Positions 28,074 to 51,207 of a stretch of 64,000 nt of DNA are shown here, piece by piece. Source of the stretch: Thermodesulfobacteriota bacterium (GTDB lineage Bacteria > Desulfobacterota_D > UBA1144 > Nemesobacterales > UBA2774); the NCBI GenBank assembly GCA_965216785.1, contig OZ244197.1, forward strand, positions 1,248,001-1,312,000. The letters run 5' to 3'. Both the position numbers and the translations under genes were made by a program. The stretch's first letter is position 1. Each line of letters opens with the position of its first letter. The notes beneath the pieces are model-generated. The model had not been told where the DNA came from and ran no database searches. It was given only the letters and a program-made list of their open reading frames with translations.

Positions 28074-28149
28074 GGGGCCGTAGCTCAGTTGGGAGAGCGC
28101 ATGAATGGCATTCATGAGGTCGAGGGTTCGAATCCCTTCGGCTCCACCA
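28074..28149 (+). tRNA. tRNA-Ala(GGC)
   Basis: 76 nt GGGGCCG...CGGCTCCACCA; anticodon arm CATGA-ATGGCAT-TCATG; G3:U70; T-loop TTCGAAT. Confidence 0.97.
28105..28149 (+). repeat. att core (tRNA 3' half), left copy
   Basis: Identical to 51088-51132. Confidence 0.95.
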
Positions 28150-28176
28150 TTAATTTCAGTAACTTACAACACCCGT

Positions 28177-29253
28177 TCAACTTTCCATATTAGCTATGTC
28201 AGTGGATTTGTCAGTAAATGATTCTGGCATATAAGCTGCAAGTGCTTCAACAGCGTCTTTTAGAGTATCTTCTGGATGTGCATAACGCATAGTTGTTTTT
28301 AGGTCGGCATGACCTAAAATTCTAGACACTGTTACTATTGATGCACCTGATTCAATCATCCTAGTTGCTGCAGTATGACGAAGGTCGTGAAATCTAAGTC
28401 CCTTAATTTTTGCTCTTCTACAAGCTCCAGCAAATGATTGCTTTAATGAGTCATGCCTTTTATATGGAGAACCTTTTGTACTTAAGAAAACATAGTTCGA
28501 TGAGCCAACTTTTAGTTTCTGTTCTAGTAGTACCTTTCTAAGTATAGAGTTGATAGGTATACGTCTTGTTTTTTTACTTTTTGTATTAGTGTGTTCGAGG
28601 GTGATTAGCTTCTTGTCTAGGTCTACATAATCCCATTTAAGACTTAGTACTTCATTTTTCCTCATTCCTGTATGAAGTGCACAAAGTAGGATTGATTTTA
28701 GGGCAGGGGAACTCGTTTCTAATAGCCTGGCCTCTTCCTCTTTGCTAAGTATGCGTTCAATTTGATTATGTTCGGTTAGTAATTTTGAAATTGATACAGG
28801 ATTTTCTCCAAAGAACCTTTTTTGTCTCTTGGCAAAATTAAATAAATGACTTAGACATGCAAGGTCTCTATTAACTGTTGCAGGTTTAACTTTTTTTAGT
28901 CTATATAGCTTGTAGTCATCAATATCACTTGAGGTAATATCAGATAGCCTCTTTCCATCAAAAAACGTCTCTAGACGCTTTAATTGAGCTATGGCTAACT
29001 CCCAAGACCTGTTTTGTTTGACATCCCTTATGTGTCTAATATATTCATCTTTAAACTGTGCTATTGTAGGAATATCAGTTTCTATCATTTCATATTGACC
29101 AAGTTTTATTTGCTGTTCTCGTTGGCGTAGAACCTCTTTAGCCATGGATTTAGTTACAACTCCTGCTCTACCTATAGATTCCCGTTTAATCCTGCCATTA
29201 GGCTTTTTGTACTCAATTACCCATCTATCTCTTATTCTGAATACACTTCCCAT
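28177..29253 (-). CDS. Tyrosine integrase (arm-binding, core-binding and catalytic domains)
   Basis: TGMRKNE, TKSK, FHDLRHT, LGH and TMRYAH catalytic residues; adjacent to att. Confidence 0.95.
   Translation of the reverse strand: MGSVFRIRDRWVIEYKKPNGRIKRESIGRAGVVTKSMAKEVLRQREQQIKLGQYEMIETDIPTIAQFKDEYIRHIRDVKQNRSWELAIAQLKRLETFFDGKRLSDITSSDIDDYKLYRLKKVKPATVNRDLACLSHLFNFAKRQKRFFGENPVSISKLLTEHNQIERILSKEEEARLLETSSPALKSILLCALHTGMRKNEVLSLKWDYVDLDKKLITLEHTNTKSKKTRRIPINSILRKVLLEQKLKVGSSNYVFLSTKGSPYKRHDSLKQSFAGACRRAKIKGLRFHDLRHTAATRMIESGASIVTVSRILGHADLKTTMRYAHPEDTLKDAVEALAAYMPESFTDKSTDIANMES
28196..28217 (+). repeat. Putative integrase arm-type site (left)
   Basis: ATGTCAGTGGATTTGTCAGTAA, identical to 50940-50961; contains tandem TGTCAGT. 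Confidence 0.7.
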
Positions 29254-29700: not shown

Positions 29701-30054
29701 ATGGGAAAATACGGATTATCACTATTGTTCATTATCTTATTGCTTTTGCCTACAGCCTCTTTCGCAGATGGAACACTGAAGTGTGGAATAAAGCCGATAC
29801 CTAAAGTAGGCTGTCTAATCGGTCGTTGTGTAGACGGTATGTGGGAACAGATATGTGATACTTCACCTATATTGAATTGTGGGATAAGACCTATTCCTGA
29901 AGTTGGCTGTAGGATAGGTCAATGTGTAAATGGACAGTGGGAACAGGTGTGCGATACATCTCCCATATTATCCTGCGGCATTAAACCAATACCTGATATT
30001 GGCTGCAAAATAGGTGGATGCGTAAACGGAAAATGGGAACAGATATGTGACTGA
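29701..30054 (+). CDS. Secreted cysteine-rich triple-repeat protein
   Basis: Signal peptide, then three 32-aa repeats CGIKPIP..GC.IG.CV.G.WEQICD. Confidence 0.8.
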   Translation: MGKYGLSLLFIILLLLPTASFADGTLKCGIKPIPKVGCLIGRCVDGMWEQICDTSPILNCGIRPIPEVGCRIGQCVNGQWEQVCDTSPILSCGIKPIPDIGCKIGGCVNGKWEQICD

Positions 30055-30240: not shown

Positions 30241-30891
30241 TTACTTCAGCAACCCTTCATTAATCTTTTTATTTCCCACCTCTAGATATATTTCGGGCTT
30301 CCTTGCTTTCGGACTATATATCCCTAAAAGATTTCCATTAGTGGAGAAGAGAAAACTTTTATCATAAGTCTTACGATAAATATATTCTATTACTTTCCTA
30401 AATAAACCTGTATCTACATGCTCTTGAGATTGGTGTTCTCTTATTTTCTCCCTTACAGTTTTGCATTGCTCAGACCATTGCAGACCAAGAATATCCTCTG
30501 GGAGAGTTATTACCTTAAAGTTATGTATACCTACAAAAGCTACCTGACATATACTTCCTACTGGTGGGTATTCTCGCTCATGTTTTATCCATATATGAGG
30601 TCGAAACATTCTTCTTTCATAACTCTCTCTACTTTTTCTAGCTTTTTCTTCCTGTTCTTCTAGTTGATTAAGAGTTAGTTCATATGCTTTCTGGTGAACT
30701 AGAGGGTCTAGACCTAATGCAGTGGGTAGCTTTTTTCTTAAAGAATCCGGACATTGACCTGTTTGGATAAGGTGGTCTAAACGTCGAAAACCCTTATTTA
30801 GGTTCTTATACCCGAGCTTTTTTACTATAGTGAGTTTGTCTTCTTTACTTCTAGATGTATACCGAAGTATAAGTTTGGAGATTTGGTACAT
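30241..30891 (-). CDS. Hypothetical protein (possible N-terminal HTH)
   Basis: 216-aa ORF with GAGGTG RBS; family not recognised with confidence. Confidence 0.65.
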   Translation of the reverse strand: MYQISKLILRYTSRSKEDKLTIVKKLGYKNLNKGFRRLDHLIQTGQCPDSLRKKLPTALGLDPLVHQKAYELTLNQLEEQEEKARKSRESYERRMFRPHIWIKHEREYPPVGSICQVAFVGIHNFKVITLPEDILGLQWSEQCKTVREKIREHQSQEHVDTGLFRKVIEYIYRKTYDKSFLFSTNGNLLGIYSPKARKPEIYLEVGNKKINEGLLK

Positions 30892-31110
30892 TTGTTCACC
30901 TCTTTAGCTGAATTTATTAAGCACCCGCAATCTGGTGTTTCAAATCAGTGCTAATAATATTTTAGTCAGAACTAATGAGTATATCAAATATCACAAACGT
31001 ATATATCGGTGGGAACTATATTCAGTGCCTATATATGGTTTGCCGGTTTAGGCTTGATAGTCTAACCTCAAAACTAGATTAAAATTGTTTGATATACAGC
31101 TCATATGGGA

Positions 31111-31240
31111 TGTAATGCTCCCCTTTTGTCAGGACCGATTTAATTTGGAATCATGAACAAAGCCAACTAGCCTTCATGACCTTCTATATAGGGTTTCTGT
31201 CAAAATTCTAACTTATGGACCTATTATTGGGAGCAGGTCA
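31111..31240. mobile_element. 130-bp MITE with IS3/IS150-like ends
   Basis: TGTAATGCTCCCC ... GGGAGCAGGTCA (TG...CA); homologous to 36253-36383. Confidence 0.75.
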
Positions 31241-31353
31241 AATTGCCTTACTCGGAATGCACTTAGATTTTACTCATTTCAACAGATCACATATTACCTA
31301 TTACATTATCGAATCCAAGAATATTGGCGAGCTCTCATAGAACTATGTTCGTT

Positions 31354-31605
31354 TTACGTCAAGGATTCGAGATAAGATTTCATGTTCTCGATCTTCTCGC
31401 TGTTTAGTGAGTAAAGCCGGTTTTGTCTCACCTTGCGCTCGCTCACTATATCGGCTTCCTTTAGGATTTTCAGGTGATTAGATATAGCTGGTTTTGAAAT
31501 CTCAAACTTGCTGGCGATTTCTCCCGCAGCAGTCTCACCCTGACTTAAATATTCCAGAATCTTTCTTCTGGTATCGTCTGCAATAGCCTTATATGGGCAA
31601 CCCAT
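31354..31605 (-). CDS. ArsR/SmtB-family transcriptional regulator
   Basis: AIADDTRRKIL..L...AGEIA..F.ISKPAISNHLKILKEA. Confidence 0.9.
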   Translation of the reverse strand: MGCPYKAIADDTRRKILEYLSQGETAAGEIASKFEISKPAISNHLKILKEADIVSERKVRQNRLYSLNSEKIENMKSYLESLT

Positions 31606-31996
31606 AATTGATTCCCTCCTTGTGATTTTATTACCCTCTCATGGCAATACTTTGAACGTCAGACGGTTGCAGTGACGTTCTACAGCTCAGCCAATTGTAG
31701 TACTGGGGGAAGCCTGGACATTAGATAGGGATGAGCCAAAAACCGTACATATAAGAGTAATCACTACAATCAAAAGCAGCTTTCTCATAATGAACCCCCT
31801 TACATTCACTATTTTGCCTGCTGTCTTGTCTTAATTGAAATGACTTTCTATTAACTACTATATATTAGTTATAATTAGATTACAACTTGGAGAACGGTAT
31901 AATGGCTTATCTTGCTACATTTCAATTATTTGCAGTACACATAAAGCTGAATTGGGTTGACTTGAGGGGAATAGTAGTTGTCAGCAATTTAAATAC

Positions 31997-33925
31997 TTAA
32001 TGTGAAGTATCTTTCAACACATTAATAATAGTTTCGCTAAGCACCTCTATTCTATAAGGTTTTTTTACAATAGCATTGAAACCAAATTTTTGATAATCCG
32101 ACAACACTGGGTCATTATAGTATCCGCTCGAAACAACAGCTCTTATATTCGGATCTAATGATCTTAGAATTTTAATTGCTTCACTGCCCCCCATACCACC
32201 TGGAATGGTAAGGTCCATAATTACAACGTCGAAAGGATTATTTTCTTTTGCCTGTTTATATTTATCTATCGCCTCTACACCGTCTGATGCGTAATCTACG
32301 TCATAACCAATTTTCTTTAACATGCGTCCGGTTGCTTTCCTTATTAACGCTTCATCATCCATTAATAGTATTCTGCCTTTCCCATACGAAACGCTCTTTT
32401 TGGGGCTACTTTTACTTTTGGCCAATTTATCACTGGAAGGGAGGTAAATATGGAATTTAGTTCCTACACCAAGTTTTGATTCTACATCTATATTCCCTCC
32501 ATGATTTGTTACTATTGAATACACACTTGAAAGACCAAGACCGTGTCCCTGCTCCTTTGTTGTATAATAAGGATCAAATATCTTATCCAAATCTTTTTGA
32601 TCTATGCCTATGCCGTTATCCTCAATTGTGATTTTAATATACTTGCCACTCCCTGGTTGAATTTTATCGGTTTTTTTTACTAATAGATTAATTACGTTCA
32701 CTTTAATAGTCCCACCATCTGGCATAGATTGTTGGGCATTTATTACTATGTTTTCAATCACCTGACTTATATGACTTTCATCTAGTTCAATATTCCATAA
32801 ACCATCCTCTATGCTAAATTCACATTTTGATTTTGATCCGCTTACAGCAAAATTCGCTACATCACATATAAAGTCGTCAAAGTTGGAGACCAGCTTTTTA
32901 ACTGGGGCACCTCCCTTTGAAAAAGTTAGAAATTGTGCTACTAAATCAGAAGCTCTATCTGTAGCATCTTCTATTTCAGAAAATAATTGAAGTAACTGAT
33001 CGTCAATCTTAGGGTGAGTCTTTGCAATGCTTAGATTCCCAATAATTGAAGTTAAAAGATTGTTGAAATCATGTGCTATACCACCCGCTAGAACTCCAAG
33101 GGACTCTAGCTTTTTGGCCCTGAGCAATTCTTCCTCTATGTTTTTTCGCTGCGTGATGTCAGCTACAAAACCGACCATTCTTGATTTTTCCTCATCACTG
33201 TCCATAAAGAAAAATCCTTTGTCTTCCACTACTATATAGTCCCCCCCCTTTTTTCTCACTCTGTACTCTAAGTTAAATGGTTCTTTTTTGTTTACCACTC
33301 TATCTAATTCATCTTGAAATTGTTCGATGTCTTCAGGGTGGATAAGCTCTAACCAATGATTTAGATCGTCTTGAATTTCGTTTTCAGAGTAACCTAGTAT
33401 CCTTTCCAAGTCTCCGCCGTAAGTAACTTTATTCGTTAATGTATCCCAATCATATAGAAGCTGGCTGCTTGCATTAATAGCTGCCTCGTAGCGGTTCCTC
33501 CACTCTACAACGGAGGCTTTTGCTTTTTTCTGCTCACTAATATCTTCGCAAATTATAAATATGAATTTTTGACCATCTTCTGAAATCACACGTGCACTTT
33601 CTTTAACCCAGAGGACATTCCCATCTTTACGAATTTTGCGTAATTCCCAATTGTGTATTTTATTTGGTTCTTTTAGGCACTCTCTGATTTGTTTGAGTAC
33701 TAGCTTTTTATCATCAGGATGAAAGACATCAAGAACCTGTTGACCAATAAGTTCATCATGCTTATAACCAAGTACTTTCGCCCCGTTTTTATTTGCCGAA
33801 AGAACATAACCTTCTGAATCAATGATGAAGTGCATCAAAGGACTAAATTCATATAGCTCACGAAACAAATTATCGTTAAAGCCTACTCGGTCCTTTCTTT
33901 TTATATTTTTAATATTTTCAGCCAT
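31997..33925 (-). CDS. PAS-PAS hybrid sensor histidine kinase/response regulator
   Basis: Two PAS domains, GGIAHDFNNLL H-box, HATPase_c, C-terminal REC (MDLTIPG). Confidence 0.92.
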   Translation of the reverse strand: MAENIKNIKRKDRVGFNDNLFRELYEFSPLMHFIIDSEGYVLSANKNGAKVLGYKHDELIGQQVLDVFHPDDKKLVLKQIRECLKEPNKIHNWELRKIRKDGNVLWVKESARVISEDGQKFIFIICEDISEQKKAKASVVEWRNRYEAAINASSQLLYDWDTLTNKVTYGGDLERILGYSENEIQDDLNHWLELIHPEDIEQFQDELDRVVNKKEPFNLEYRVRKKGGDYIVVEDKGFFFMDSDEEKSRMVGFVADITQRKNIEEELLRAKKLESLGVLAGGIAHDFNNLLTSIIGNLSIAKTHPKIDDQLLQLFSEIEDATDRASDLVAQFLTFSKGGAPVKKLVSNFDDFICDVANFAVSGSKSKCEFSIEDGLWNIELDESHISQVIENIVINAQQSMPDGGTIKVNVINLLVKKTDKIQPGSGKYIKITIEDNGIGIDQKDLDKIFDPYYTTKEQGHGLGLSSVYSIVTNHGGNIDVESKLGVGTKFHIYLPSSDKLAKSKSSPKKSVSYGKGRILLMDDEALIRKATGRMLKKIGYDVDYASDGVEAIDKYKQAKENNPFDVVIMDLTIPGGMGGSEAIKILRSLDPNIRAVVSSGYYNDPVLSDYQKFGFNAIVKKPYRIEVLSETIINVLKDTSH

Positions 33926-34091
33926 GAGCTTCAGGTATTTTTATTAATCCATTCATTATTAGTTGTTCAATATAAGCCTTTATACTGAATACCCTTATCT
34001 GAGCATGTCAGTATCTCAACTAAATCACATCTAAGATACCTTGTTTCAATCTATCTTATTTAGTTTAGCAGAAATTCTAAAATTTAGTAAC

Positions 34092-34211
34092 TATACTGCT
34101 CCCCATTAAGAAGTGAGTATAGTTAAGTTGGAAAAAAAGCTATACGGAGGGAGCAATGAAGCGAAGAAGATGGGATTCTAAAACAAAGACTAAGATAGTA
34201 CTTGAAGGTCT
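34092..34211 (+). pseudogene. IS3-family left end with truncated OrfA start
   Basis: TATACTGCTCCCC end, GGAGG RBS, ATG at 34156 encoding MKRRRWDSKTKTKIVLEGL (IS3 OrfA-like), cut by another IS end at 34212. Confidence 0.75.
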
Positions 34212-34326
34212 TGTACTGCACCCCTTCTTTTGTCAAGCTCAGATTAAGTTGGAATACTGAAGATTGTGCACTCTTCTAAGCCAATCAAATGACTTCCTGT
34301 ATATAGGGTTTTCTGGCAGTAGTCCA
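34212..34326 (+). mobile_element. Partial MITE copy with IS150-like end
   Basis: TGTACTGCACCCC..TTTTGTCAAGCTCAGATTAAGTTGGAAT; interior ATGAC.TC.TATATAGGGTTT shared with 31111-31240. Confidence 0.7.
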
Positions 34327-34430
34327 AAATGGTAGAGGAAAATAATTTCTTGACTGGATATTCCACATTGTGATACGATGAGATTTTGTAGGAGTCATTT
34401 AATAGACTCTGCTTTTATTCCAATTGGCTA

Positions 34431-34682
34431 ATGGAGGTACCCATGCCAAAGTTTATAGATGTACATGATATGGAGCCGTTCACTGCAGAACAGCTTAAAG
34501 AACTTCAGGATGCACCTGCAGACGAATTTGGAGTCACGCATCATGATATTCTATTTAACGAGGGTGAAAACAGGATTTACTGCATCCTGGATGCTCCCAA
34601 TGCAGAAGCGATTCACAAGCATCATGAAAAGGCTGGCATCAAATGTGAATGGGTCCATGAAGTGAAGTCGACACGAACCTGA
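34431..34682 (+). CDS. DUF4242 (SCO4226-like) small protein
   Basis: MPKFIDVH...IYCILDAPNAEAI.KHH..AG....VHEV; likely start at ATG 34443. Confidence 0.8.
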   Translation: MEVPMPKFIDVHDMEPFTAEQLKELQDAPADEFGVTHHDILFNEGENRIYCILDAPNAEAIHKHHEKAGIKCEWVHEVKSTRT

Positions 34683-34716
34683 CTGGTCCTTGGTGGTTTC
34701 ACCACCACAATCGACC

Positions 34717-34807
34717 TTTTCGTCAAGCTGCGTAAAAGTGGAGCAGTATAATCTGCCCACTATAATAGGTCCATAAGTTAAGTTAGATTTTTATGGAGAG
34801 CAGGTCA
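34717..34807. repeat. Cluster of three abutting IS-like ends
   Basis: AAAAGTGGAGCAGTATA joined to TAATCTGCCCACTATAATAGGTCCATAAG, and GGAGAGCAGGTCA. Confidence 0.65.
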
Positions 34808-34892
34808 AATACTATTGAAAATATATCCACCTGTGATACTATTATAGTTGCTAAGTTGTTAAATTTAGAAATCTGTATTATAGGGGGATATA

Positions 34893-36083
34893 ATGAAAAA
34901 GTTTATAATTAGTATACCCGTTTTACTGTTGTTGACCGTATTTTCCGTCCGTGCCAATGCCGATTTCGGCGATCTTTTTATCCAGGTAGAGTTGAATACC
35001 TCTCCTCAGGGATGTTCGATATTGAAAGTAGATCCGGCTGGAGGACTTTCTGAGTTTATTTCTAATGCCGAGATTCTAACTGTTTCTGGAGCTGCTAGTG
35101 CTGACTGTGATGACGCTGGACTTGCCGCAGGCTTGGATGGAAAAGTTTATTTCAATGAGGACATCTCCGACAATATATTCGTTGCAAATCCAAACGGACA
35201 GCTAGGACTATTCATCTCTGACGATGTGGTAGACAGTATAGTGCCTGGTAATGATGATGTTGATTGGGATAACGGGCTCGCTGTGGGCCCTCGATCCGGA
35301 GACCTTTTCGCGGCCGATGAGGACAATGAGATAATATTTAAGTTTTCTACGAATGTACCCACTCCTATTATAGACACGGCTTTTATAGATATATTAGCGA
35401 CTGAAGCGGATTTTGAAGCTCTTGTTTCAACAGCAGACCTTGAAGGTGGAATTGCTGTAGATTTCGAGGATAATGTCTATATCACTAACGACGGCGGCGG
35501 TACTTCTGACGTTATATTTAAGTTAAGCCCACTAGGTGATGTCTCTATACTATGTACTAATGCGGAGCTAGAAGCTGTTACAGGTGGGGATATTGATCTG
35601 GACGTAGGCGCGGTATTCGGCGGCAGCTTGTTCGTTAGTGACGACGGTGATTGCGACTGTGTCCTGGAGATTGATACAGAATCCTGCAACCCAAGGGTTA
35701 TAATTACTGAGGATGATATTACTGCGGCCACGGGGAATTCATCTGCAGACCTCGAAGGCGGTCTGTGTATAGGTCCGAATAGAGCTTTGTTTATTGGGGA
35801 CGACGCTTCAAGTGGTAATGGCGACATACCTAATATTCTGAAGTCGCCCATTACTGAGCGCTCGGGAGTCTCGATCTTTGTGTCTGACACTGCAATCGAT
35901 TCTTTTTATGCTATAGCGGAGCCGGGTTCAGATCCACAGCTGAGGGGCTCATGCAGTGTAGAGGGAGGTTTTGATAGACAGGCTTCAATCCCCACACTTT
36001 CGGAATGGGGTCTAATAGCAATGGCTGGATTATTAGGAATTATTGGTCTATTGGCTATTCGTAGAAAAAGGGTGACAGCTTAA
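34893..36083 (+). CDS. Acidic secreted repeat (beta-propeller-like) protein with IPTL-CTERM sorting signal
   Basis: Signal peptide, repeated DLEGG-like units, C-terminal IPTLSEWG + TM helix + RRKR. Confidence 0.85.
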   Translation: MKKFIISIPVLLLLTVFSVRANADFGDLFIQVELNTSPQGCSILKVDPAGGLSEFISNAEILTVSGAASADCDDAGLAAGLDGKVYFNEDISDNIFVANPNGQLGLFISDDVVDSIVPGNDDVDWDNGLAVGPRSGDLFAADEDNEIIFKFSTNVPTPIIDTAFIDILATEADFEALVSTADLEGGIAVDFEDNVYITNDGGGTSDVIFKLSPLGDVSILCTNAELEAVTGGDIDLDVGAVFGGSLFVSDDGDCDCVLEIDTESCNPRVIITEDDITAATGNSSADLEGGLCIGPNRALFIGDDASSGNGDIPNILKSPITERSGVSIFVSDTAIDSFYAIAEPGSDPQLRGSCSVEGGFDRQASIPTLSEWGLIAMAGLLGIIGLLAIRRKRVTA

Positions 36084-36119
36084 ACTTAAACAAAACTAAA
36101 CAATACAAATTGTATATAG

Positions 36120-36150
36120 AAAGGGGAGCTTCGGCTCCCCTTTGTGTTTT
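36120..36150 (+). terminator. Rho-independent terminator
   Basis: AAAGGGGAGC-TTCG-GCTCCCCTTT followed by a T-rich tail. Confidence 0.85.
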
Positions 36151-36164
36151 GAATTGATATCCTA

Positions 36165-36205
36165 ATTCCAACTTAATCTGAGCTTGACAAAAGTGGAGCA
36201 GTCCA
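36165..36205 (-). repeat. IS150-like terminal repeat
   Basis: Reverse complement TGGACTGCTCCACTTTTGTCAAGCTCAGATTAAGTTGGAAT; inner part identical to the copy at 34212. Confidence 0.8.
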
Positions 36206-36252
36206 AACTTACCAACTAGCAGGTTAAGAGTAAGACTTCATGGCCTGAGTTC

Positions 36253-36383
36253 TGACATGCCCCCCATAATAGTCCATAAGCTAGCTTCTTGAAAGGAAAC
36301 CATACGTACAGAATATCATCAGAATCACCACTAAACGTAGCATTCTAGCTTAAACCGATCTTGACGAAAGGAGGAGCAGTACA
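36253..36383. mobile_element. 131-bp MITE with IS3/IS150-like ends
   Basis: TGACATGCCCCCCATAATAGTCCATAAG ... CTTGACGAAAGGAGGAGCAGTACA; inverted homolog of 31111-31240. Confidence 0.7.
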
Positions 36384-36559
36384 ATAGTTCCTTCAAATTA
36401 ACTATTAATATAGAAAAATTATGGCTCTATCAAACTAGACATAAGGCTCAATAATTATCCTCTGCATTGTAGAATTATTCTTAGAAAATACTTAGAAATG
36501 AAACAGGGGCTAACGGGTAGCCCCTATAATGTTAGTGAGAAATGTTTGAATAATGCAGC

Positions 36560-36667
36560 TTACATGTTTTCAATCTCACAATACGATAGATTAATTTCTT
36601 CGGCTTTATTTGTTTTCATCCATTCTTCTACCTCACTCAGCTTGAATCGGATTAATCTGCCAATTCT
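36560..36667 (-). pseudogene. C-terminal fragment of an excisionase-type HTH protein
   Basis: RIGRLIRFKLSEVEEWMK... preceded by an in-frame stop; no upstream start. Confidence 0.55.
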
Positions 36668-36713
36668 TTAGAGAAAATTTGAGGTTTGTCCGGATTTGCA
36701 CAACTTGACAGAT

Positions 36714-37454
36714 TTATAACTCGCCTTCTCTCTTTTTGCTTCTATCGGTGTCTCTAAACGATACCAGATATGCGGTTCCACTATACCATTCTATCTGCAC
36801 TACTTGCATCTCCATTACTACGTTAAGGCCGCATTTGTGACTGATGTTGACTTTTGTCCTTTTGCCCGTATTCAAAGGAAAATCAAAATAACTTCCGTGC
36901 ATTTCTTCTTCATTACGGCCAAAGAGAAGCTCGGCGGCGGCGTTGATATATTGGACGTATCCATTCTTATTTACTATTACTAAGCCGTTGGGGTTACCGT
37001 GCAGTGCATTAAGGAAATAGTCTACGCCCTCCGGGTCTGATACTTTAGAGTGTCTATTACTTTCCATCATGAATCTGAGGTAAGAATGTAAAATGCTGCG
37101 TGCCAGATTCACAGTCTTTATCTCGTTTTTTATAAGGTAACCTTGCGCACCCATCTGAATTGATTTTATTGCCATTACTTCATCTTCATTTGCCGTCACG
37201 ATGATAATTGGTGTATTTGGTGCGTGCTTTTGCAATTTGATAAATGTATCAATTTCTTGACTATCCGGGAGATTGAGATCTAAAAGAACCAAGTCGATAT
37301 TTTCATGTGTCAGTTGTTTAAGTCCTTTTGAAAGACAATCAGCCCAATCCACTTCGAATGTTACCAGTTCTGACTTATGAAGCTTTCTTTTAACTATTTG
37401 TGAGTAATCATAATTGTCCTCAATCAATAGGACTTTTATATATTCGTTTTGCAT
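36714..37454 (-). CDS. Response regulator REC-PAS protein lacking an output domain (possibly truncated)
   Basis: LLIEDN..LLDLNLPD REC, then PAS ending at SFRDTDRSKKRE, where a kinase or GGDEF domain normally follows. Confidence 0.75.
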   Translation of the reverse strand: MQNEYIKVLLIEDNYDYSQIVKRKLHKSELVTFEVDWADCLSKGLKQLTHENIDLVLLDLNLPDSQEIDTFIKLQKHAPNTPIIIVTANEDEVMAIKSIQMGAQGYLIKNEIKTVNLARSILHSYLRFMMESNRHSKVSDPEGVDYFLNALHGNPNGLVIVNKNGYVQYINAAAELLFGRNEEEMHGSYFDFPLNTGKRTKVNISHKCGLNVVMEMQVVQIEWYSGTAYLVSFRDTDRSKKREGEL

Positions 37455-37494
37455 ATGGCTTGCTCCTCCATTAATGTTCGTTATGTGCTTTCTG

Positions 37495-37540
37495 TGTACT
37501 GCTCCCCAGTATGATGACCAAATTAAGTCGGAATTATGAA
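37495..37540 (+). repeat. IS150-like terminal repeat
   Basis: TGTACTGCTCCCC...ATTAAGTCGGAAT. Confidence 0.65.
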
Positions 37541-37660
37541 GTTTACATTACTCATTCTAGAGCCTTATGTCCTAGGTTGTAAACACTCTTTCTGAAGTGA
37601 ACAGACAGAAATGGCGACGGTAAAAGATATAGCTCGGAATCGCCTGACTCTATATAGATT

Positions 37661-40600
37661 TTAATGCTCTGGCGACATAACCACATCGTGTAAAACTTTA
37701 CTCACATTATTAATATTATAAGGTTTTGGCATGAAAGCTTTAAATCCATATTTATCGTAATTGGATATGCCTCCGTTCTCAGAGTATCCACTTGATACAA
37801 TAGCCTTAAGATTCGGGTTTATGTCGAGCAATTTCTTCAAGGTCTCTTTTCCTCCGATGTCTCCGGGAATAGTCAAGTCGAGAATCACCGCATCCAATCT
37901 ATCGCCGGATTCTACGGATTCATTGTAGATTTTTATTGCTTCGGAACTGTTTTTAGCTAATATAGGATTGTATCCGAGCTGTGTTATCATTTCACTAAGA
38001 GTTTCTCTGATCTTCAACTCATCATCCATTATTAGTACATTCCCTTCACCTCTCTTGAGATTAAATTCTTTATCCTCCAACTCAGAGGGAGACTCTTTGA
38101 TTGCGGGAAGATAGATAGTAAATGTCGATCCTTCGTTTACTTTAGAGTCTACGGTTATATGTCCGTTGTGCTGTTTTACAATGGAGAATGAAGACGCAAG
38201 CCCAAGGCCGCTCCCATGTTCTTTTGTGGTGAAAAAAGGATCGAATATCTTCTGCAAGTGCTCTTTGGGTATACCGCCTCCGCTGTCTTTTACGTTTACC
38301 TCTACATATTCCCCCTGCGGCAGATTTAGATTATTTCCTTCCTCTAATATAACGTTTTTTGCTCCCACTTGTATTGAACCACCATCGGGCATTGCATGCT
38401 GGGCATTTATAATAAGATTATTGATAACCTGGTTTATCTGTCCCTCGTCAATCTCTACCGGCAGTAGGTTGTCTTCTATAGAGAAATCGCATTCTACGTT
38501 TGAACCTCTAAGGGCGAATTTTGTTGAATCTTCTAGTATTTCATGAATAGTCATAACTTTTACATTAGGCTCACCGCCTTTAGAGAATGTAAGAAGCTGC
38601 TGAGTTAACCCAGTTGCTCTTTGAATTGCGTCTTCTGCTTCCGAAAGCCATTTGGACATATAATCATTCGGGTCCGTTTTAGGCTCACATTACCCAAAAC
38701 TATAGTTAAGAGATTATTAAAATCATGCGCGATACCGCCAGCAAGCAGGCTCAGTGATTCCAGTTTTTGAGATTTTAGGAGTTCTTCTTCCATTTTCATG
38801 CGCTCAGTGATGTCTGTTGAATAAAGAACAGCCCGAGTCTCCCCGGACGAGGTTGTAAATGGTGTACCTGTGCTTTCAAGCCACCTATATTCCCCATTTT
38901 TATGTTTGTATCTAAGGTGCTGGATACCAGCATTAGAAAAATTCTCCAGTCCGGTAATCATACTATTAAATACGGCGTTTTTGTCTTCTGGATGAATATT
39001 ATCAAATACACTTGTGCCAATAAGTTCCTCAGGGTCATAGCCCATTTGATCTTTATGATTCTTGTTTACGAATAAAAATTCGCCCTTTGTATTTATTTCA
39101 ACTATTAAATCATGTGAGTACTCAACTAAGGCGCGGTACCGTTCTTCAATCTCCCGCCTCTTTTCTTCCTCAAGTTTACGCTCGGTAATATCACGAGATG
39201 TTATAACGCCTCGATCTTCTCCACTTGCTGTTTTAAATAACTTGCCGATGCTATTGAGCCACCGCCAGGAGCCGTCTTTATGCCTATATCTAAAACTTAC
39301 TTCATTGCTGGAGGTTAAGGTATTCTTCGCGTGAATAAATTTACTAAGTACATGGTTTTTATCATCAGGATGGACGAAATCGAAAATACTTTTGCCTATA
39401 AGCTCTTCTGGGTCATAGCCCAGATATTCTTTATGATTCTTGTTTGCGAATAAAAATTTACTGTCTGCACTGACTTCTACAATCAAATCGTACGAGTGCT
39501 CAACAATTGTGCGATACCTGTTTTCGCTTTCTATTAGCGCATCTGACTGTTTTGTATTACCGATTGCGGTTTCGACCTGCTGTGCAACTATATTCAGAAG
39601 GTATATTTCATCGTCACTAAATGCGTTTTTCTCAAAAGAATGCAAATTAATGCAACCTATTACCTTACCCTTGTAATGGAAGGGCATGGACAAATAACTC
39701 CTTGTTCCGACCTCTCTCCCGGCGGGTCCAATATATTCGTCCTGGTCTACATCCGGACAATATCTCAGCTTCCCTTCCATCAATACCTTCCATGTAAAGC
39801 CCTTAGGGTAGGGAATTTTTCCTAACCGCTGAACAAACCATTCTGGCAATCCTTTTGAGGTTTTTAATACGGCATCATCCCCCTCAATCATAAAAATTGA
39901 TACGTGTTCAGCTATTTCCATATTCCTGCTAAGTGATTGAGCCGCATTTTCTAGAACGTCTTCTAGCCTGGTTGATTTGTGCACGTTACGTGTAATCAAG
40001 CTGATAATAGATTCATACTTACTCTTTTTATATAACCTATTGAAGTTTCCCTTTATTTCGTTTTCCGCAATCTCTTGATCTATGCGCGTGGCAATCATAT
40101 TAGCAACGGATTGCAAGAAATTAATGTCATCTTGAGTGAAATTTCTTAGCTTTTTAGTGTGAGCGCCTATGACGCCATAAATTTTTTCTTTGCACTTGAT
40201 GGAGGTGCTGATCCCGCTTATAACGCTATGATCGTGAAGAAGAGCAGGTCCTGAAAATCTTTCTTCTGTTTGCAGGTTTTTTACTGTAACTGGATGTTCT
40301 GAATACAAGGTATAACCGGCCTGGGAATCGTCGCCGCCCGGAACGACGGTCTTACCCACACTTCCGTCTTTCCATCCGATGCCGGCAACAAGCAGAAAAT
40401 CCTCACCGTCCGGTAGGAGCTTTAGAATCTTGCAGTATTCAATTCCTAAGCCCCTAGCAACTAAGTTTACTGTTTTATCCATAAATTCCGAAAGATCATT
40501 GATAGATAAGGAAGATTGTCCGAGATTTGCAATTATCTCATTCTGGTAAGCCCGGATTCTTAGCTCATCTAAAATCTGTTTCTTTTCTTTGATTTCATTC

Positions 40601-40836
40601 TTAAGTTTGATTCTATGACGAACTGAGAATATGAATATGATGAAAAAAAATAATGCCGCTGTACCTATAAATTCATCTAATTCCCACGGTTCGTAACTAC
40701 TAATTAACATGTGGATTATTTCAAATAAGTCGAAATACGAGGAAATGATATAAACGGACAAGAATAAAACTAATAAAGCTGCTGGTTCCTTGTTATTGTT
40801 TGCAAATTGGAAAATTCTGTCTTTAAAATTAGTCAT
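37661..40836 (-). pseudogene. Membrane GAF-GAF-PAS-PAS hybrid histidine kinase, frameshifted just after the H-box (ORFs 38605-40836 and 37661-38659)
   Basis: First ORF ends ..AHDFNNLLTIVLGNVSL; second frame resumes ..SEAEDA..QLLTFSKGG, colinear with the paralog at 31997-33925. Confidence 0.85.
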
Positions 40837-41019
40837 AATATGCTGTTTTGCTTAACTCACCAGACGGTATTGGTTACGCCATCCTTTTCCCTCTGTACAT
40901 CTGGCTTGTTCAACCTTTATTCTTTAGCCTCATAACTTTAATATTTTTGAAAAAGCAGAGTAAAAAATTTATGCTAACACCTACAAAAAATTAAATCGCA
41001 CATTACATAGAATGTATCT

Positions 41020-41034
41020 GCAATCTTTATGCCA
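41020..41034 (-). promoter_or_regulatory. Sigma54 (-24/-12) promoter for the hybrid kinase
   Basis: TGGCAT-AAAGA-TTGC on the minus strand; palindrome GACAAAGTTTGTC at 41119-41131 upstream. Confidence 0.65.
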
Positions 41035-41186
41035 GTTGATCTAGGATTTGTAAGAGACTAGAATTATTACACATTGATGATAAAACCTTATTGCTATCTA
41101 TTAAAGATGTTTAAGGGCGACAAAGTTTGTCACAATATAATTCACTTTTTTGTCAAGAGTGGTTAAAGTTGGAGTTTTTAAGACTT

Positions 41187-41225
41187 TGTACTGCACCCCT
41201 TTTGTCAAGCCTGATTTAAGTTTGA
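41187..41225 (+). repeat. IS150-like terminal repeat
   Basis: TGTACTGCACCCCTTTTGTCAAGCCTGATTTAAGTTTGA; a degenerate copy lies just upstream (~41140-41175). Confidence 0.75.
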
Positions 41226-41415
41226 TTGAAGAATATTTGAACGAATTAAAAGGTCTTGCCTAATCATAGTCTAAATAACTTAATTTCTGTAACTCACTTT
41301 CGATACCAATAACTTTATCTTATAGAGAATGTAAATAATCTATATAATATCCTTGGCTATACCGGATTAGCCTATATAATTTAATCCATAGGCTATAAAA
41401 TATATTGAGCAAAAA

Positions 41416-42057
41416 ATGCAATCAACCGCATACAACATAGATAGAGAAAAGATTTTAGACCTTGAACAAAGAGCAAAGCTATTAAAAACATGTAAGGACA
41501 AAGCTGAACTGGATTTATTACATGGTCGGGAAACATGGATAAAACGTTACATGTTAGTAGATTTGGCTCTATTTACTGGATTACGTGTTGCCGAGATAGC
41601 CAATTTAAAAATTGGGGATTTCGATATAAAAGCTAAAGATCCCTATCTAATTGTTAGAAAAGGGAAAAGGGGTAAAAAAAGAGATGTTTATTTGGATAAA
41701 GAACTCGTTAGGCATATAAAGGCTTTTATTAGTTGGAAGAAGAAAACAATGAGAGAAGAAGTTGAAAATGATAGTCCTTTTTTTACTGGTAGAGATGGAA
41801 AACACTGTGCAGTTATAACTCTTATGAAATCATTTAAAAGGGCAATCCAAGACTCAAACTTACCTTTACATTTCTCTATACACAGTGCTCGTCATACATA
41901 TGCCACTTTCTTACTACATGCAACAAATAATCTTAGATATGTTCAGAAACAGCTTGGCCATAGTAAAATAAGTATGACTGCACTTTATGCGGATGTTTTA
42001 CCATCTGAAAATGGTAACCTAGCTAATAAGATTAGAGAAAATAATCTAACAGATTAG
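41416..42057 (+). CDS. Short tyrosine recombinase (catalytic domain only)
   Basis: TGLRVAE, GK, HSARHTY, LGH and TALY catalytic residues in 213 aa. Confidence 0.9.
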   Translation: MQSTAYNIDREKILDLEQRAKLLKTCKDKAELDLLHGRETWIKRYMLVDLALFTGLRVAEIANLKIGDFDIKAKDPYLIVRKGKRGKKRDVYLDKELVRHIKAFISWKKKTMREEVENDSPFFTGRDGKHCAVITLMKSFKRAIQDSNLPLHFSIHSARHTYATFLLHATNNLRYVQKQLGHSKISMTALYADVLPSENGNLANKIRENNLTD

Positions 42058-42100
42058 CACACATACGGTTGTATTAAGCGTACTTAATTTATATTGATTA

Positions 42101-43615
42101 TCATTTTTCTGTAATCATATTTCTCCTAATCCATCCCTCAGCTTCAAAGGCATGTACGTAATCCATGTAACTTACTAGACACCATCCATCTTCTTCTCTG
42201 ATTAAAGTGACTACCATATTAGGCTGCAATATTCCCAGTGGTTTAGCATCATAAGAATTGGCTTCCATAACCTCAGATTTCTCTATTACTACATAGTCGT
42301 CAAATTGGCTCTTATTCTCCTCTTCTTCGCACGTATTTTCCATGTGTTCTTTCAATTCATTGAACTTTTCTTGTTCATAAATTCTATCTCTTTCTTCCAT
42401 CTCTTTTAGTTCTTCAATGAGTAGTTCCCTAGTAACCACATGTTCTTGACTCATTTTTTCTATTATTTTATTAGTGGATTCCTGAGACACATAGCAGCTA
42501 TGTGATAAGCTAATAAATAAAAATACTGCCGATACAATCACGTTAAGTATCAGAGGGTTTTTAGTACTTTTATCCCAAACATTCTTTATAAATTCAAAGA
42601 AGCTATCTCTTATCTCATTACGTTCTGACTCTTCTTCTGCTGTTAGGATTCGGGAGCAATATTCTGTGTACTTATTGCCAAATGTATTTTGGAATTGTTC
42701 GAATAAATCCTGACTGTCAACTAATTTGTTAAGATAGTCTCTAGCATAATTTATTGGAATGTTATTAGCAGTAACCATATTTATTGCATCCATCATATTA
42801 CGTTTGGCTTCTAATGCTTCTTCAAATTGAAGTGCGGCCGTTGATGGTATATCAAACGCATTAAAGGTCTTGGAGAGTAAATCATTTGTTTCTTTTAATG
42901 TCCTAAGTGTTTCAGTATCCAAAGTTATTTGATTAGGTACTAAATATCCCCGACTAAGGCCTGCAACTAATCCGATATCAACAGCAGCTTGTTGTGCTAG
43001 TTTGATTTGGTCCTCAAACAAGTCACGTTGTTGAAATATTGCATCGCTTAACCCGTGATCTGCGACCAATCCCATATTTGATGCAGTCTTTTGTGCTAGT
43101 TTGATTTGGTCTTCGAACCACTTGGGTTGTTGCAATAGTGTATTTTCAATATCCATCATCTCTATTTGCTTACTAACGGATTGCAACGTTTCTAATTGGG
43201 GAAATGTATACCTCTTCATTCTTTCACTTAGGTCTTTAAATGGTCCCATCAATTTCTTATCGTAGTCTTTAAAAACTTTTCTGAGCTTATCGAAAAAATT
43301 TCCATATTTATGTTTATTTTTTATTTTGTTGTAACGAGTCTTAAGTGCATGACTGTTTAACAAAATTATTCCAATATTTTTCAATTGATACTCTGATAGC
43401 TCAGATAATTTATCTCTTGGTAACTTAGGTTTGATTAGTAAGGAATGTGCAAGGTCACGAAATGCCTCTCTCGCATTTTTTCTACTAGATGCAAACTTCT
43501 GTATGATATTGTGTTGCTTTAAAGTAGGATAACGAAACTCTAATTCACCAATGTTTTTAGTTTTAATTTTGAATGACCCAGGAATTTTTACTTCTAAGTC
43601 TTTGATATCTACCAT
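42101..43615 (-). CDS. Hypothetical protein with one TM helix and C-terminal SH3-like domain
   Basis: C-terminal LGILQP.MVVTLI.EEDGWCLVSY...EGWI; internal duplication FEDQIKLAQ..A...GLVA. Confidence 0.65.
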   Translation of the reverse strand: MVDIKDLEVKIPGSFKIKTKNIGELEFRYPTLKQHNIIQKFASSRKNAREAFRDLAHSLLIKPKLPRDKLSELSEYQLKNIGIILLNSHALKTRYNKIKNKHKYGNFFDKLRKVFKDYDKKLMGPFKDLSERMKRYTFPQLETLQSVSKQIEMMDIENTLLQQPKWFEDQIKLAQKTASNMGLVADHGLSDAIFQQRDLFEDQIKLAQQAAVDIGLVAGLSRGYLVPNQITLDTETLRTLKETNDLLSKTFNAFDIPSTAALQFEEALEAKRNMMDAINMVTANNIPINYARDYLNKLVDSQDLFEQFQNTFGNKYTEYCSRILTAEEESERNEIRDSFFEFIKNVWDKSTKNPLILNVIVSAVFLFISLSHSCYVSQESTNKIIEKMSQEHVVTRELLIEELKEMEERDRIYEQEKFNELKEHMENTCEEEENKSQFDDYVVIEKSEVMEANSYDAKPLGILQPNMVVTLIREEDGWCLVSYMDYVHAFEAEGWIRRNMITEK

Positions 43616-43657
43616 ACGCCTAATATAACCAAATTTTTAGGAAAAGTTTATTTAATA

Positions 43658-43780
43658 TGTACTGCTCACAATTACTATTAAGTTTTAAGAATCATACTTC
43701 CAACTTAATCTTTGCTTGACAATAGGGGAGCGGTGTACTGCTCCCCTTTTGTTTAGTCGGATGTAAGATGGAATCTTGAA
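43658..43780. repeat. Three IS150-like ends including a head-to-head junction
   Basis: TGTACTGCTCAC at 43658; TTCCAACTTAATC..GCTTGACAATAGGGGAGCGG abutting TGTACTGCTCCCCTTTTG at 43734. Confidence 0.75.
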
Positions 43781-43854
43781 TATCTATACTAAGAAAAAGA
43801 AGCCGGCAAAAATAGTACTAAGCTAGCTTATTTCATTTATTATATTAATAATAA

Positions 43855-43900
43855 GTGGCTCCTACGGGATTCAAACACGAATAACAGCCTTGAGGGGACT
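43855..43900 (-). pseudogene. Degenerate 3' half of tRNA-Glu(CTC), att-like remnant
   Basis: Reverse complement AGTC-CCCTCAA-GGCTG-TTAT-TCGTG-TTTGAAT-CCCGT-AGGAGCC-AC. Confidence 0.6.
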
Positions 43901-43987
43901 ATATCAACAGCCTTTATCTGATTACCGATAGCATGATAGATTAATAATATTATATAGATAATCTACATTTTCTATCAAATAGCGTCA

Positions 43988-44059
43988 TATTCTGATATAT
44001 TGCCATCAGAAAATGGCAGTCTTGCCAATAAGATAAGAGAAAATAATCTAACAAATTAG
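43988..44059 (+). pseudogene. Duplicate 3' tail of the short tyrosine recombinase
   Basis: YSDILPSENGSLANKIRENNLTN* vs YADVLPSENGNLANKIRENNLTD* (41986-42057); 59/72 nt identical. Confidence 0.85.
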
Positions 44060-44104
44060 GACAATATAGCTGATTGGATGGGAAAAAATAATAATTATTT
44101 TGAA

Positions 44105-49155: not shown

Positions 49156-49728
49156 TTATTCAGGAGTCTCAATGCTACAGGCCTTGCCCTCTCGTTCTTT
49201 ACGAGGGACGTAAATGTCAGGTTCTCCACCTTTATATATACTCTTTGTCATGTAATGTATTGCACCCTTTTTAGGGTCGTAAGTATCTATAACTGCGTGT
49301 CCGTTAACAATCCTATTAAGCAAAGTTCCGTTCTTCTGTTGCCCATTACACTTCCAAAGTTCAGCCATATACTCCCAATAAAGCTCACTTAGCCCATCAG
49401 CACCTAGCAAAGCGTGAATGTGAAGGGTCCCCCTCTTCTGGGTTTCGTATACGACTGCATAGCGAATACCACGACCTCTTTGTTTGTATCGCCTTCTAAA
49501 GAGTTTTTTGTTAAGAGAGTCAATCCACTTCTCAAATCTCAACTTAACCAACCCAAATTCTGTATCTTCTCGAAACGTTAAGGTAACAAATAAGTCGTAT
49601 TCATAGCGTGAGATAAGTTCTATCCAGTACTTCTGCCGTTCACTCTTTTCAGAGTACAACTTTCTAGATTTATATTTTTCAAGTCTACGCCTACAGTCTG
49701 CTACAACTTTACCAGCAAATGAACTCAT
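49156..49728 (-). CDS. Small HUH rolling-circle replication initiator-like protein
   Basis: Motif I FVTLTF, motif II ETQKRGTLHIHAL, motif III HYMTK. Confidence 0.75.
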   Translation of the reverse strand: MSSFAGKVVADCRRRLEKYKSRKLYSEKSERQKYWIELISRYEYDLFVTLTFREDTEFGLVKLRFEKWIDSLNKKLFRRRYKQRGRGIRYAVVYETQKRGTLHIHALLGADGLSELYWEYMAELWKCNGQQKNGTLLNRIVNGHAVIDTYDPKKGAIHYMTKSIYKGGEPDIYVPRKEREGKACSIETPE

Positions 49729-49733
49729 AATTA

Positions 49734-49961
49734 CTATCCTCCCAGCTTTCGCTTTTGGCTTATAATCACATTAAGTCTAGAATGTTCTCGAAGCCAGTTA
49801 TTTAAATCCTCTGGAATTATTAAACAACGTTTTCCCACTCGAGAGACAGGCAATCTGCCCTCCGCCGAGAGACGATACAGATATGAAACACTAAGACTAG
49901 TGAGCTCTGCTACCTCTGGGATGGTATAAGCAAGTTTCTCATTTTTATGACTTTCATTCAT
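49734..49961 (-). CDS. Excisionase-type helix-turn-helix protein
   Basis: AYTIPEVAELTSLS.SYLYRL..EGRLP..RVGKR.LI..EDL..WL. Confidence 0.85.
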   Translation of the reverse strand: MNESHKNEKLAYTIPEVAELTSLSVSYLYRLSAEGRLPVSRVGKRCLIIPEDLNNWLREHSRLNVIISQKRKLGG

Positions 49962-50057
49962 TTTAATACCTCCTATTTGATAATATCAACTACAATGTGT
50001 AGAATATAACACAAAATACCACATATATATAGTATTTATGGTACAATATTACACACA

Positions 50058-50972
50058 ATGGAAAATCGGCTCTCAAAATCAGATACAGAATACATAGCGG
50101 ACAAGTTTAATTGGTCAGCAAATGAAGCTAGCAACGCTGTGATAGAGTTTTTGGAAAAACCTTCATTTGCCAATAGTGAAGAGATATTGAGGATATGTAT
50201 TGATGCTAAGACCCCTGATGAAAGAAAAGGAACAATATATGAAAGTTTAGTAAATGCTCAATGTAATGATTTAGCAGAACACGTCTGTAATCAAATTGTT
50301 CGTCCAGACCCTTGTTTTGATATACTTGCCACTTTCAATATTAGTGAACTAAACTCGCCATTTATTACATTAAAAAAGAGGCCGAATAAAGGACCATATG
50401 AAGCCTCATTCTATTTAAGAAACATAACTCCTGGACATATTTTGGTAAATCCAAGTTTGGGCTCTAACCTTGTTTATTCATTATGCTATGAATATTTGGA
50501 TAAGCTTTTAAAAATAAAATTTAGACAAGGATTAAATTCTGAATCATTACTTACAGATATTGTATCAAGAGTGGGCTTCAGGGCATTTGAAATAACTTGT
50601 CTAAAAGATATGGCAGTTTTCTATAGTGCGGTCCCCGTTTTAAACGATAAGGCGACTCGATTAGCTAGAGCTATTGCATCGGCGATAGACAAAAAAGAAA
50701 TAACACAAATGGGTTACTGGTTATATTACGTAGTTATAGAAAGAAATAGAGAACAATATGGTTTAAGAGGGGCGTTCAGGGAACTAGCAAAAGTAACAAG
50801 TCAAAAAACAAGTACAATACACACTACATACTTTGATAGAAAAAAGATAGCAAAAAAAGAAGGTTTAACTCTTGATGATATAATCCATAAATGTTCACTT
50901 CAAAAACCAATACTTGAGATCGAACAAACGTTGCAGAAAATGTCAGTGGATTTGTCAGTAACTGAAGAGTAG
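50058..50972 (+). CDS. Hypothetical protein divergent from xis-rep (possible element regulator)
   Basis: 304-aa ORF; position typical of the regulator of an integrative element. Confidence 0.6.
   Translation: MENRLSKSDTEYIADKFNWSANEASNAVIEFLEKPSFANSEEILRICIDAKTPDERKGTIYESLVNAQCNDLAEHVCNQIVRPDPCFDILATFNISELNSPFITLKKRPNKGPYEASFYLRNITPGHILVNPSLGSNLVYSLCYEYLDKLLKIKFRQGLNSESLLTDIVSRVGFRAFEITCLKDMAVFYSAVPVLNDKATRLARAIASAIDKKEITQMGYWLYYVVIERNREQYGLRGAFRELAKVTSQKTSTIHTTYFDRKKIAKKEGLTLDDIIHKCSLQKPILEIEQTLQKMSVDLSVTEE
50940..50961 (+). repeat. Putative integrase arm-type site (right)
   Basis: Identical 22-mer to 28196-28217. Confidence 0.7.
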
Positions 50973-51087: not shown

Positions 51088-51132
51088 ATGGCATTCATGA
51101 GGTCGAGGGTTCGAATCCCTTCGGCTCCACCA
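51088..51132 (+). repeat. att core, right copy (3' 45 nt of tRNA-Ala)
   Basis: ATGGCATTCATGAGGTCGAGGGTTCGAATCCCTTCGGCTCCACCA. Confidence 0.95.
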
Positions 51133-51207
51133 GTAATTTCAGGAACTTTGTGCAACCTCACTCACATACTCTATAAATATAAAGTCCATGTGATATATAA
51201 TTAGTCT

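Follow-up and report, generated by a model that had tools for sequence, protein, structure and literature searches.

The IS3 family is among the largest families of insertion sequences (IS), and its members are normally treated as cargo-free. Passenger genes placed between IS ends are known from mobile insertion cassettes (MIC), and co-oriented arrays of a boundary element plus cargo are known from integrons. The present study concerns short terminal repeats that punctuate a low-GC island of approximately 23 kb, beginning at a tRNA-Ala gene, in a Thermodesulfobacteriota bacterium; the island lies in a window (i.e., the whole stretch of DNA analysed) of 64,000 nt that covers G000:C1:1248001-1312000, where G000 is the genome holding the window and other G numbers denote genomes of relatives. 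An earlier note on this window had described the repeats as a transposase-free array of IS3-type ends and as a candidate system for cassette accretion. We report here that these ends belong to the IS3 family and probably represent a lineage whose units are bounded by a left end and by a free-standing right end of ~47 bp (type A) that lies beyond passenger genes, the island itself likely being a decayed, transposase-less pile-up of such units.

Three kinds of element come closest to this build: single-ended derivatives of Tn6330, modules of the ISEcp1 type, and ISPpy1 as a possible case from the IS3 family itself. IS3 transposition is described as copy-out/paste-in via a circle with a junction promoter, with the -35 hexamer in the right end and the -10 hexamer in the left end (PMC9330008, PMC2909936). 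Our elements resemble the IS3/IS911 model in having orfA and orfB in a -1 frame relationship, a DDE-type OrfB, imperfect inverted repeats (IR), a 4-bp target duplication and -35 and -10 hexamers in the right and left end, respectively; they differ in having a working right end that is separated from orfB by the passengers, 0.7-5 kb further downstream. Single-ended Tn6330 derivatives (ISApl1-mcr-1, IS30 family) show the same order of IS, cargo and short intact right end, with a duplication (PMC5821093); however, they are a rare decay product with one cargo, whereas our clade shows this build as a rule and combines it with an end type of its own, many different cargos and ends that follow one another in chains. 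ISEcp1 and ISPme1 (IS1380 family), and possibly ISPpy1, likewise mobilise variable 3' DNA with one IS via a downstream end (PMC9330008), which in the cases outlined there is a chance IR look-alike, whereas our lineage has a conserved, dedicated distal end that is better than the inner one. With transporter IS (tIS; defined in PMC9330008 and PMC7986276) and with MIC, our units share the placement of passengers between the ends of an IS, whether a transposase is present or absent. They differ from both in that the old right end is kept inside, the cargo varies per copy and right ends recur serially. Translocatable-unit arrays of IS26 are co-oriented arrays of one boundary element plus cargo (PMC7986276); here, unlike in IS26 arrays and integrons, it is a 47-bp end that recurs as the boundary, in place of a complete IS or an attC hairpin. 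We found no earlier description of an IS3 clade with this build, ISfinder and most subscription papers being outside the search.

An intact IS3 element with a left end of the type found at 34092 in the island is located at G000:1323502-1324637, 11.5 kb beyond the window; the description as transposase-free thus holds for the island and fails for the genome. This element encodes an OrfA of 91 aa, which matched PF01527 (HTH), and an OrfB of 256 aa, which matched the NCBIfam IS3 model NF033516 with 173 bits (cut-off 160) as well as, above cut-off, PF00665 (DDE/rve); orfB is in the -1 frame (offset 2 mod 3) behind an A8 run, and frameshifting is predicted from this sequence. Because OrfB is at most 34% identical to its best plasmid IS3 matches (30-34%), no IS3 subgroup was assigned, and a likeness of the ends to those of IS150 is presumed here. 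The closest relatives of the transposase are records of Candidatus Dadabacteria or Thermodesulfobacteriota. The right end begins with TG and the left end with TA, and the two have the core CTGCTCCCC in common, as imperfect terminal IRs. At 34092 the island holds the left end that matches type A; this end with its 19-codon OrfA stub, which the earlier note had recognized correctly, and the left end of the intact element have 80% identity.

The transposed unit of this lineage consists of the left end, orfA, orfB, a decayed inner right end, one or more passengers and an A end; it is flanked by a 4-bp target duplication, and its passengers differ between copies. This was established on 33 full-length copies (at least 75% OrfB identity, both flanks present, duplicates merged). 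When the inner right end was taken as the boundary (i.e., a bare IS), a 4-bp duplication was found in only 1 of 33 copies with eight offsets allowed, which is about the chance level; with the distal A end as the boundary, 15 of the 22 copies for which such an end was available showed a perfect 4-bp duplication, three had one mismatch and four had none. Permutation of the left flanks gave a mean of 0.73 duplications and never reached 15 in 100,000 permutations. Among outgroup elements, by comparison, the duplication is on the bare IS in 27 of 45 (six more, for which an end was not found, were excluded). A phylogeny of 40 OrfB proteins contained a branch with 100/100 support that separated the two labelled sets: the 11 extended units were on one side, within a 21-member group of close relatives, and the 11 bare elements were on the other. 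Mean terminal scores were 0.6 bits for the decayed inner ends and 21.2 of 22.4 bits for the A ends that bear duplications, which are thus near consensus. A duplication of 4 bp is within the 3-4 bp of IS3 elements, and the passengers are inside the duplication-bounded unit, as in a transporter IS or transposable module. The units are 1.85-6.1 kb long, and the 15 cargos are all different genes (e.g., for a methyltransferase or a lectin-domain protein); five of the 15 include an IPTL-CTERM gene, and sequence shared between cargos is confined to the IPTL tail, except that two IPTL proteins match weakly over a longer stretch.

Could these units be ordinary composite transposons that have decayed, as with ISApl1-mcr-1, i.e., two IS copies flanking a gene, with the downstream copy deleted down to its right end? 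Tn6330 derivatives that retain 42-90 bp of a right end together with the duplication are described (PMC5821093), and type A is homologous to the right end that adjoins orfB in the intact G000 element. Yet type A, which is conserved over only ~47 bp, differs systematically from that end over positions ~22-40 in 148 distinct copies, and the box TTAAG(T/C)T(G/A)G is common to type A and the left end, whereas the inner right end, which overlaps the orfB stop codon, lacks it. The 3' end of the transposase was found in 0 of 93 box-bearing A ends versus 17 of 70 other right ends, so that no pair of IS flanking the cargo is seen. New composites would moreover need duplications on the bare IS, and these are at chance level in the clade. 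We therefore give composite decay a poor chance. The near-consensus state of the distal ends across the 148 copies is also not that of the look-alikes used by ISEcp1-type modules.

Further support for a unit that extends from the left end to the A end comes from comparisons among loci. Loci L092 and L081, whose flanking sequences are unrelated, have in common a 2.59-kb unit (86%) that runs from the left end through to the A end. A cassette with no transposase (G000:1967341-1968632) has the duplication, and G002 holds the length-exact empty site with one copy of the four bases, two letters of which have diverged. The genes flanking a 4.8-kb unit of G000 adjoin each other in G003, and the cargo of this unit recurs in G018, followed by a decayed A end. 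In the G003 island at the site corresponding to ours, an intact IS is followed by an IPTL gene and then an A end. An all-against-all comparison of loci gave a boundary at an end in 18 of 286 rows, several of them redundant.

Three-box models trained solely on ends outside the island and applied at a working cut of 17 bits or more gave 43 matches in G000 and 0 in a locally shuffled genome. Every one of the 15 positions listed in the earlier note carries the sequence described; 11 of these island ends score at least 17 bits, the remaining four being terminal-only or decayed. After removal of two matches internal to open reading frames, 41 ends in 15 clusters remained, of which the island, with 11 ends, is the densest. 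The statement that no ends exist outside the island holds within the window and fails genome-wide, as 30 of the 41 ends lie in 14 other clusters. Of 120 genomes examined in the phylum, 26 contain the type-A pattern, whereas the reversed control gave no matches; with 52 and 32 type-A matches, respectively, G050 and G097 offer the best material for a study of arrays. Island ends are intergenic, except that the end at 34212 cuts the OrfA stub, in line with the earlier observation that no other gene is interrupted.

Ends of type B belong to a second IS3 element (presumably IS407-like), of which they form the left end; since the intact copy in L021 has a different right end, type A was rejected as the right end of the B-type element. 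A B end plus the start of its orfA, fused to an A end, makes up a B-A module of 113-154 bp that was seen 25 times and whose two arms derive from different elements. Such modules bear on a further alternative, namely that the ends are ordinary litter of miniature inverted-repeat transposable elements (MITE) in AT-rich DNA, with genes between them by chance. Many ends do belong to minis (47, 59, 80, 130-154 and ~176 bp), ends favour low-GC DNA (9 of 15 low-GC 13-kb bins versus 12 of 224 other bins in G000), and the outer end in L171 and L195 is part of a B-A module. However, a target duplication was found for 0 of 25 B-A modules, which led us to reject them as independently moving MITEs, and of 171 A ends only 25 have a B end facing them; cargo is also tied to the ends by duplications, shared units and the empty site. 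MITE litter is hence largely refuted for the lineage, and we consider it very improbable as an explanation. The earlier note had named an even spread of ends, with cargo indel boundaries elsewhere, as the outcome that would speak for litter; the ends are instead clustered and several cargo boundaries fall at termini.

With regard to arrays, the unit is a gene plus one right end behind a left end, and not an inward A-A or B-A pair. An internal A end inside a duplication-bounded unit was found in L059, L171 and L195, with L182 as a weak fourth case. Consecutive A ends are co-oriented in 52 of 62 pairs (10 opposite), in a set of loci partly picked for several matches. In L254 and in L273, a right end is followed, with no base in between, by a 1221-bp segment of gene plus A end that is common to the two loci, the DNA upstream being different. 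Three head-to-head junctions of ends have a 1-bp spacer, and another A-to-left junction of this kind is present on a contig of an independent run (X8); in L241, a chromosomal A-left junction with a 1-bp spacer places -35-like and TATACT hexamers 17 bp apart. These data support integron-like accretion in outline. As a separate observation, a 1028-bp segment is duplicated at 99% in G036 (L063:4955-5982 and L064:2437-3464), one copy starting at the first base outside an A terminus and the other fused to a B arm.

An ordered, integron-like system, in which the transposase would cut out single-ended circles of gene plus A end and insert them exactly at an existing right end that acts like attI/attC, is one reading of these chains. 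The segment shared by L254 and L273, which begins at base +1 after the right end in both and stops at the A terminus, the co-orientation of the chains and the 1-bp head-to-head junctions fit such a pathway, and PMC7986276 describes IS3 members that insert into IRs in a targeted manner. Against it, a gene-A circle was not seen; the end upstream of the segment in L273 resembles a mixture of A and inner end, which plain recombination between ends can explain; 48 of 139 A ends face the 5' end of a gene; the island ends are mixed in type and orientation; and IS911 is, according to PMC2909936, less efficient at bridging directly repeated ends. An integron proper, with IntI, attI and attC, is not seen either, as the island recombinases score 76.5 and 63.8 against an integron-integrase cut-off of 265 and the boundaries are IS ends; no attC model was run. 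We regard such an ordered system as unlikely. As to the earlier proposal that cassettes accrete beside older ends, the transposition of gene units bounded by ends, the ends that abut with 1 bp between them and the co-oriented chains agree with it, and the inward-facing brackets drawn to illustrate it do not.

A number of observations weigh against reading the ends as boundaries of transposed units with detached right ends. Seven of 22 units have no perfect duplication. Five G000 sites were compared with relatives: one was base-exact, one was syntenic but too diverged, one had its boundary ~90 bp away from the end, and the other two gave no information; G000:691978, 2126303 and 2681445 gave no decisive boundary, the ~90-bp offset being at one of these three. 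Transposase-less left ends that face an A end have a perfect duplication in just 3 of 23 pairs, each cassette being seen at one site only; as these duplications may be older than the loss of the transposase by deletion, they do not prove movement in trans. Transposase-less cassettes exist, and they may be mobilised in trans. At the working threshold, 12 of the 15 duplication-bounded units have a single A end, and serial growth is therefore a minority state; in G000 alone, three pairs of consecutive A ends have the same orientation and two the opposite, which is not significant, and the larger sample was in part chosen for multiple matches. Lastly, no perfect duplication was found for any pair of island ends tested, so that our reading of the island relies on analogy with copies that are better preserved.

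Taken together with what is described for IS3 chemistry, the units suggest the following pathway. The transposase would pair the left end with an A end in preference to the coding-constrained inner end, and a circle would be copied out, whose 1-bp-spacer junction would form a TTGACA-17-TATACT promoter, before being pasted in elsewhere. Units could grow when an element lands upstream of or beside an older piece of gene plus A end and then uses the farther A, and cargo could be swapped by recombination between directly repeated ends. Deletion of orfAB would leave transposase-less cassettes and minis.

Within the island, the first ends belong to a B-A module of 130 bp (31111-31240, minus strand), in which a B left arm of the second IS3 element (31240) is fused to a type-A right end (31111); the pair had been listed as separate ends, as had 36253 and 36383, which likewise delimit a B-A module (131 bp, plus strand), and both modules are members of the recurring family and have no target duplication. 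The left end of the cognate IS3 element starts with TATACT (34092-34211, plus strand) and is followed by the orfA stub (ATG at 34156), which is cut at 34212 by a type-A right end of a leftward-pointing unit (34212-34345, minus strand), with the interior of a B-A module that has lost its B terminus. Next is a passenger gene (34431-34682, plus strand) with a match to PF14026 (SCO4226-like/DUF4242) in a candidate cassette of 539 bp (34212-34750). Of the brackets proposed earlier, this one is plausible: its flanks match at three of four bases (chance about 0.055) and its order of left terminus, inner end, gene and A end is the usual one; a DNA search in 40 relatives gave no match to it among the matches listed. 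The end called type A at 34750 (minus) is the left terminus of a decayed mini-IS of ~47 bp (34700-34750, minus strand), in which this terminus is fused to an orfB-type right end, as alignment with L246, L019 and L180 indicates. The end at 34807 (minus) is the terminal-only half of a 59-bp B mini-element (34749-34807, plus strand; B left end plus 16-bp terminus) with a near-identical copy in G002.

Downstream, an IPTL-CTERM passenger gene with its terminator (34893-36083, plus strand) is followed, 122 bp past the stop codon, by a partly decayed type-A right end with an outward TTGACA (36160-36205, plus strand; terminus at 36205). The bracket drawn around this gene (34749-36205) was rejected for its mixed ends and lack of a duplication, and pairing of the left end at 34092 with 36205, 36383 or 43737 was rejected for lack of a duplication. 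A decayed right end (37495-37540, minus strand) lies 166 bp beyond the 3' end of a PAS/GAF histidine-kinase gene (37661-40836) that is apparently split into two frames overlapping near 38605-38659. Two tandem type-A right ends occupy 41136-41235 (minus strand), the decayed one at 41136 being an addition to the earlier list and the one at 41187 being intact. The end at 43658 (plus) proved to be the terminal-only half of an 80-bp mini-element (43658-43737, plus strand; terminus plus type-A end), whose right terminus, listed as 43733 (minus), is better placed at 43737 (minus) and overlaps the end listed as 43734 (plus) by 4 bp; the latter is a type-A right end head-to-head with the mini-element (43734-43780, minus strand). 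By analogy with the better-preserved copies, we read these parts as nested units, likely a decayed pile-up left without a transposase. One contig of run X1 matched 30744-43982 without difference, which is used as an assembly check only, as X1 may be the source sample; the island is not covered in runs X5, X7 and X8.

The third bracket (41187-43733), said to enclose a recombinase and an SH3 gene, was rejected because no duplication was found and the recombinase belongs to a separate element with its own repeats that runs past 43733. This element (41322-43975, no strand assigned) has inverted repeats of ~25 bp at 41322 and 43975, is not bounded by IS ends, and carries a tyrosine recombinase of 213 aa (41416-42057) and a gene of 504 aa; Pfam found no family in 42101-43615, and the SH3 label was not confirmed. 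The small-recombinase element recurs (window positions 41322-44063, G000:864693-871654, G000:1152571-1164130, L314 and L315) with a cargo of 2.6-11.5 kb that differs in each copy, and in the three G000 copies the last codons of the recombinase are repeated just beyond the right repeat; it may represent an undescribed integrative family.

G000 has 57 IPTL-CTERM genes. A block of ~220 bp that comprises the IPTL-CTERM tail, the terminator and an A end is kept at 69-78% identity behind unrelated N-terminal domains (35988-36205 and many other loci), a pattern suggestive of domain swapping within cassettes. One and the same terminator hairpin is present in about half of the 57 genes, as judged by eye. 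The terminator of one IPTL gene carries a left end in its loop (G000:867932), and the stem of this hairpin equals the IR core. The IPTL terminator was nevertheless rejected as an insertion target: A ends turn their inner side to the terminators, and IPTL genes are therefore read as cargo.

Concerning the host island, the tRNA-Ala gene and the left att repeat are at 28074-28165 (plus strand), and copies of this 61-bp repeat at 28105 and 51088 (51088-51148) bound the island. Its tyrosine integrase (28177-29253, minus strand; 82% DNA identity to the integrase at the same site in L069) is context only and outside the IS system. A small, secreted-looking, cysteine-rich repeat protein with no Pfam match is encoded at 29701-30054 and has homologues in related islands (L067, L070). 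At its right end (49156-50972) the island holds a rolling-circle-type Rep gene (PF23343), within which there is a terminal-only end match at 49256, a small excisionase-like frame and a 304-aa gene of no known family; the island may therefore be an integrated plasmid-like element. A homologue of pentameric ligand-gated ion channels (51208-52263) lies directly beyond the right att site.

The point of interest is the lineage and not this particular island. Tentatively, this IS3 clade might have made its right end into a portable cassette boundary, with the transposase itself adding, chaining and exchanging units of gene plus end; this would amount to integron-like capture without an integron and would help to spread IPTL-CTERM surface-protein genes in Dadabacteria. 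An entire clade of IS3 appears to carry genes habitually, whereas its natural outgroup still transposes as the bare IS; the transition from insertion sequence to transposon can thus be followed clearly in this case, and the choice of an IS3 transposase between a near and a far end can be tested directly. Annotation by transposase and nearest IR would draw such elements too short and miss their cargo. For the uncultured bacteria that harbour it, the lineage is also a means by which IPTL-CTERM surface-protein genes can turn over; G000 has 57 of these genes, and five of the 15 cargos include one.

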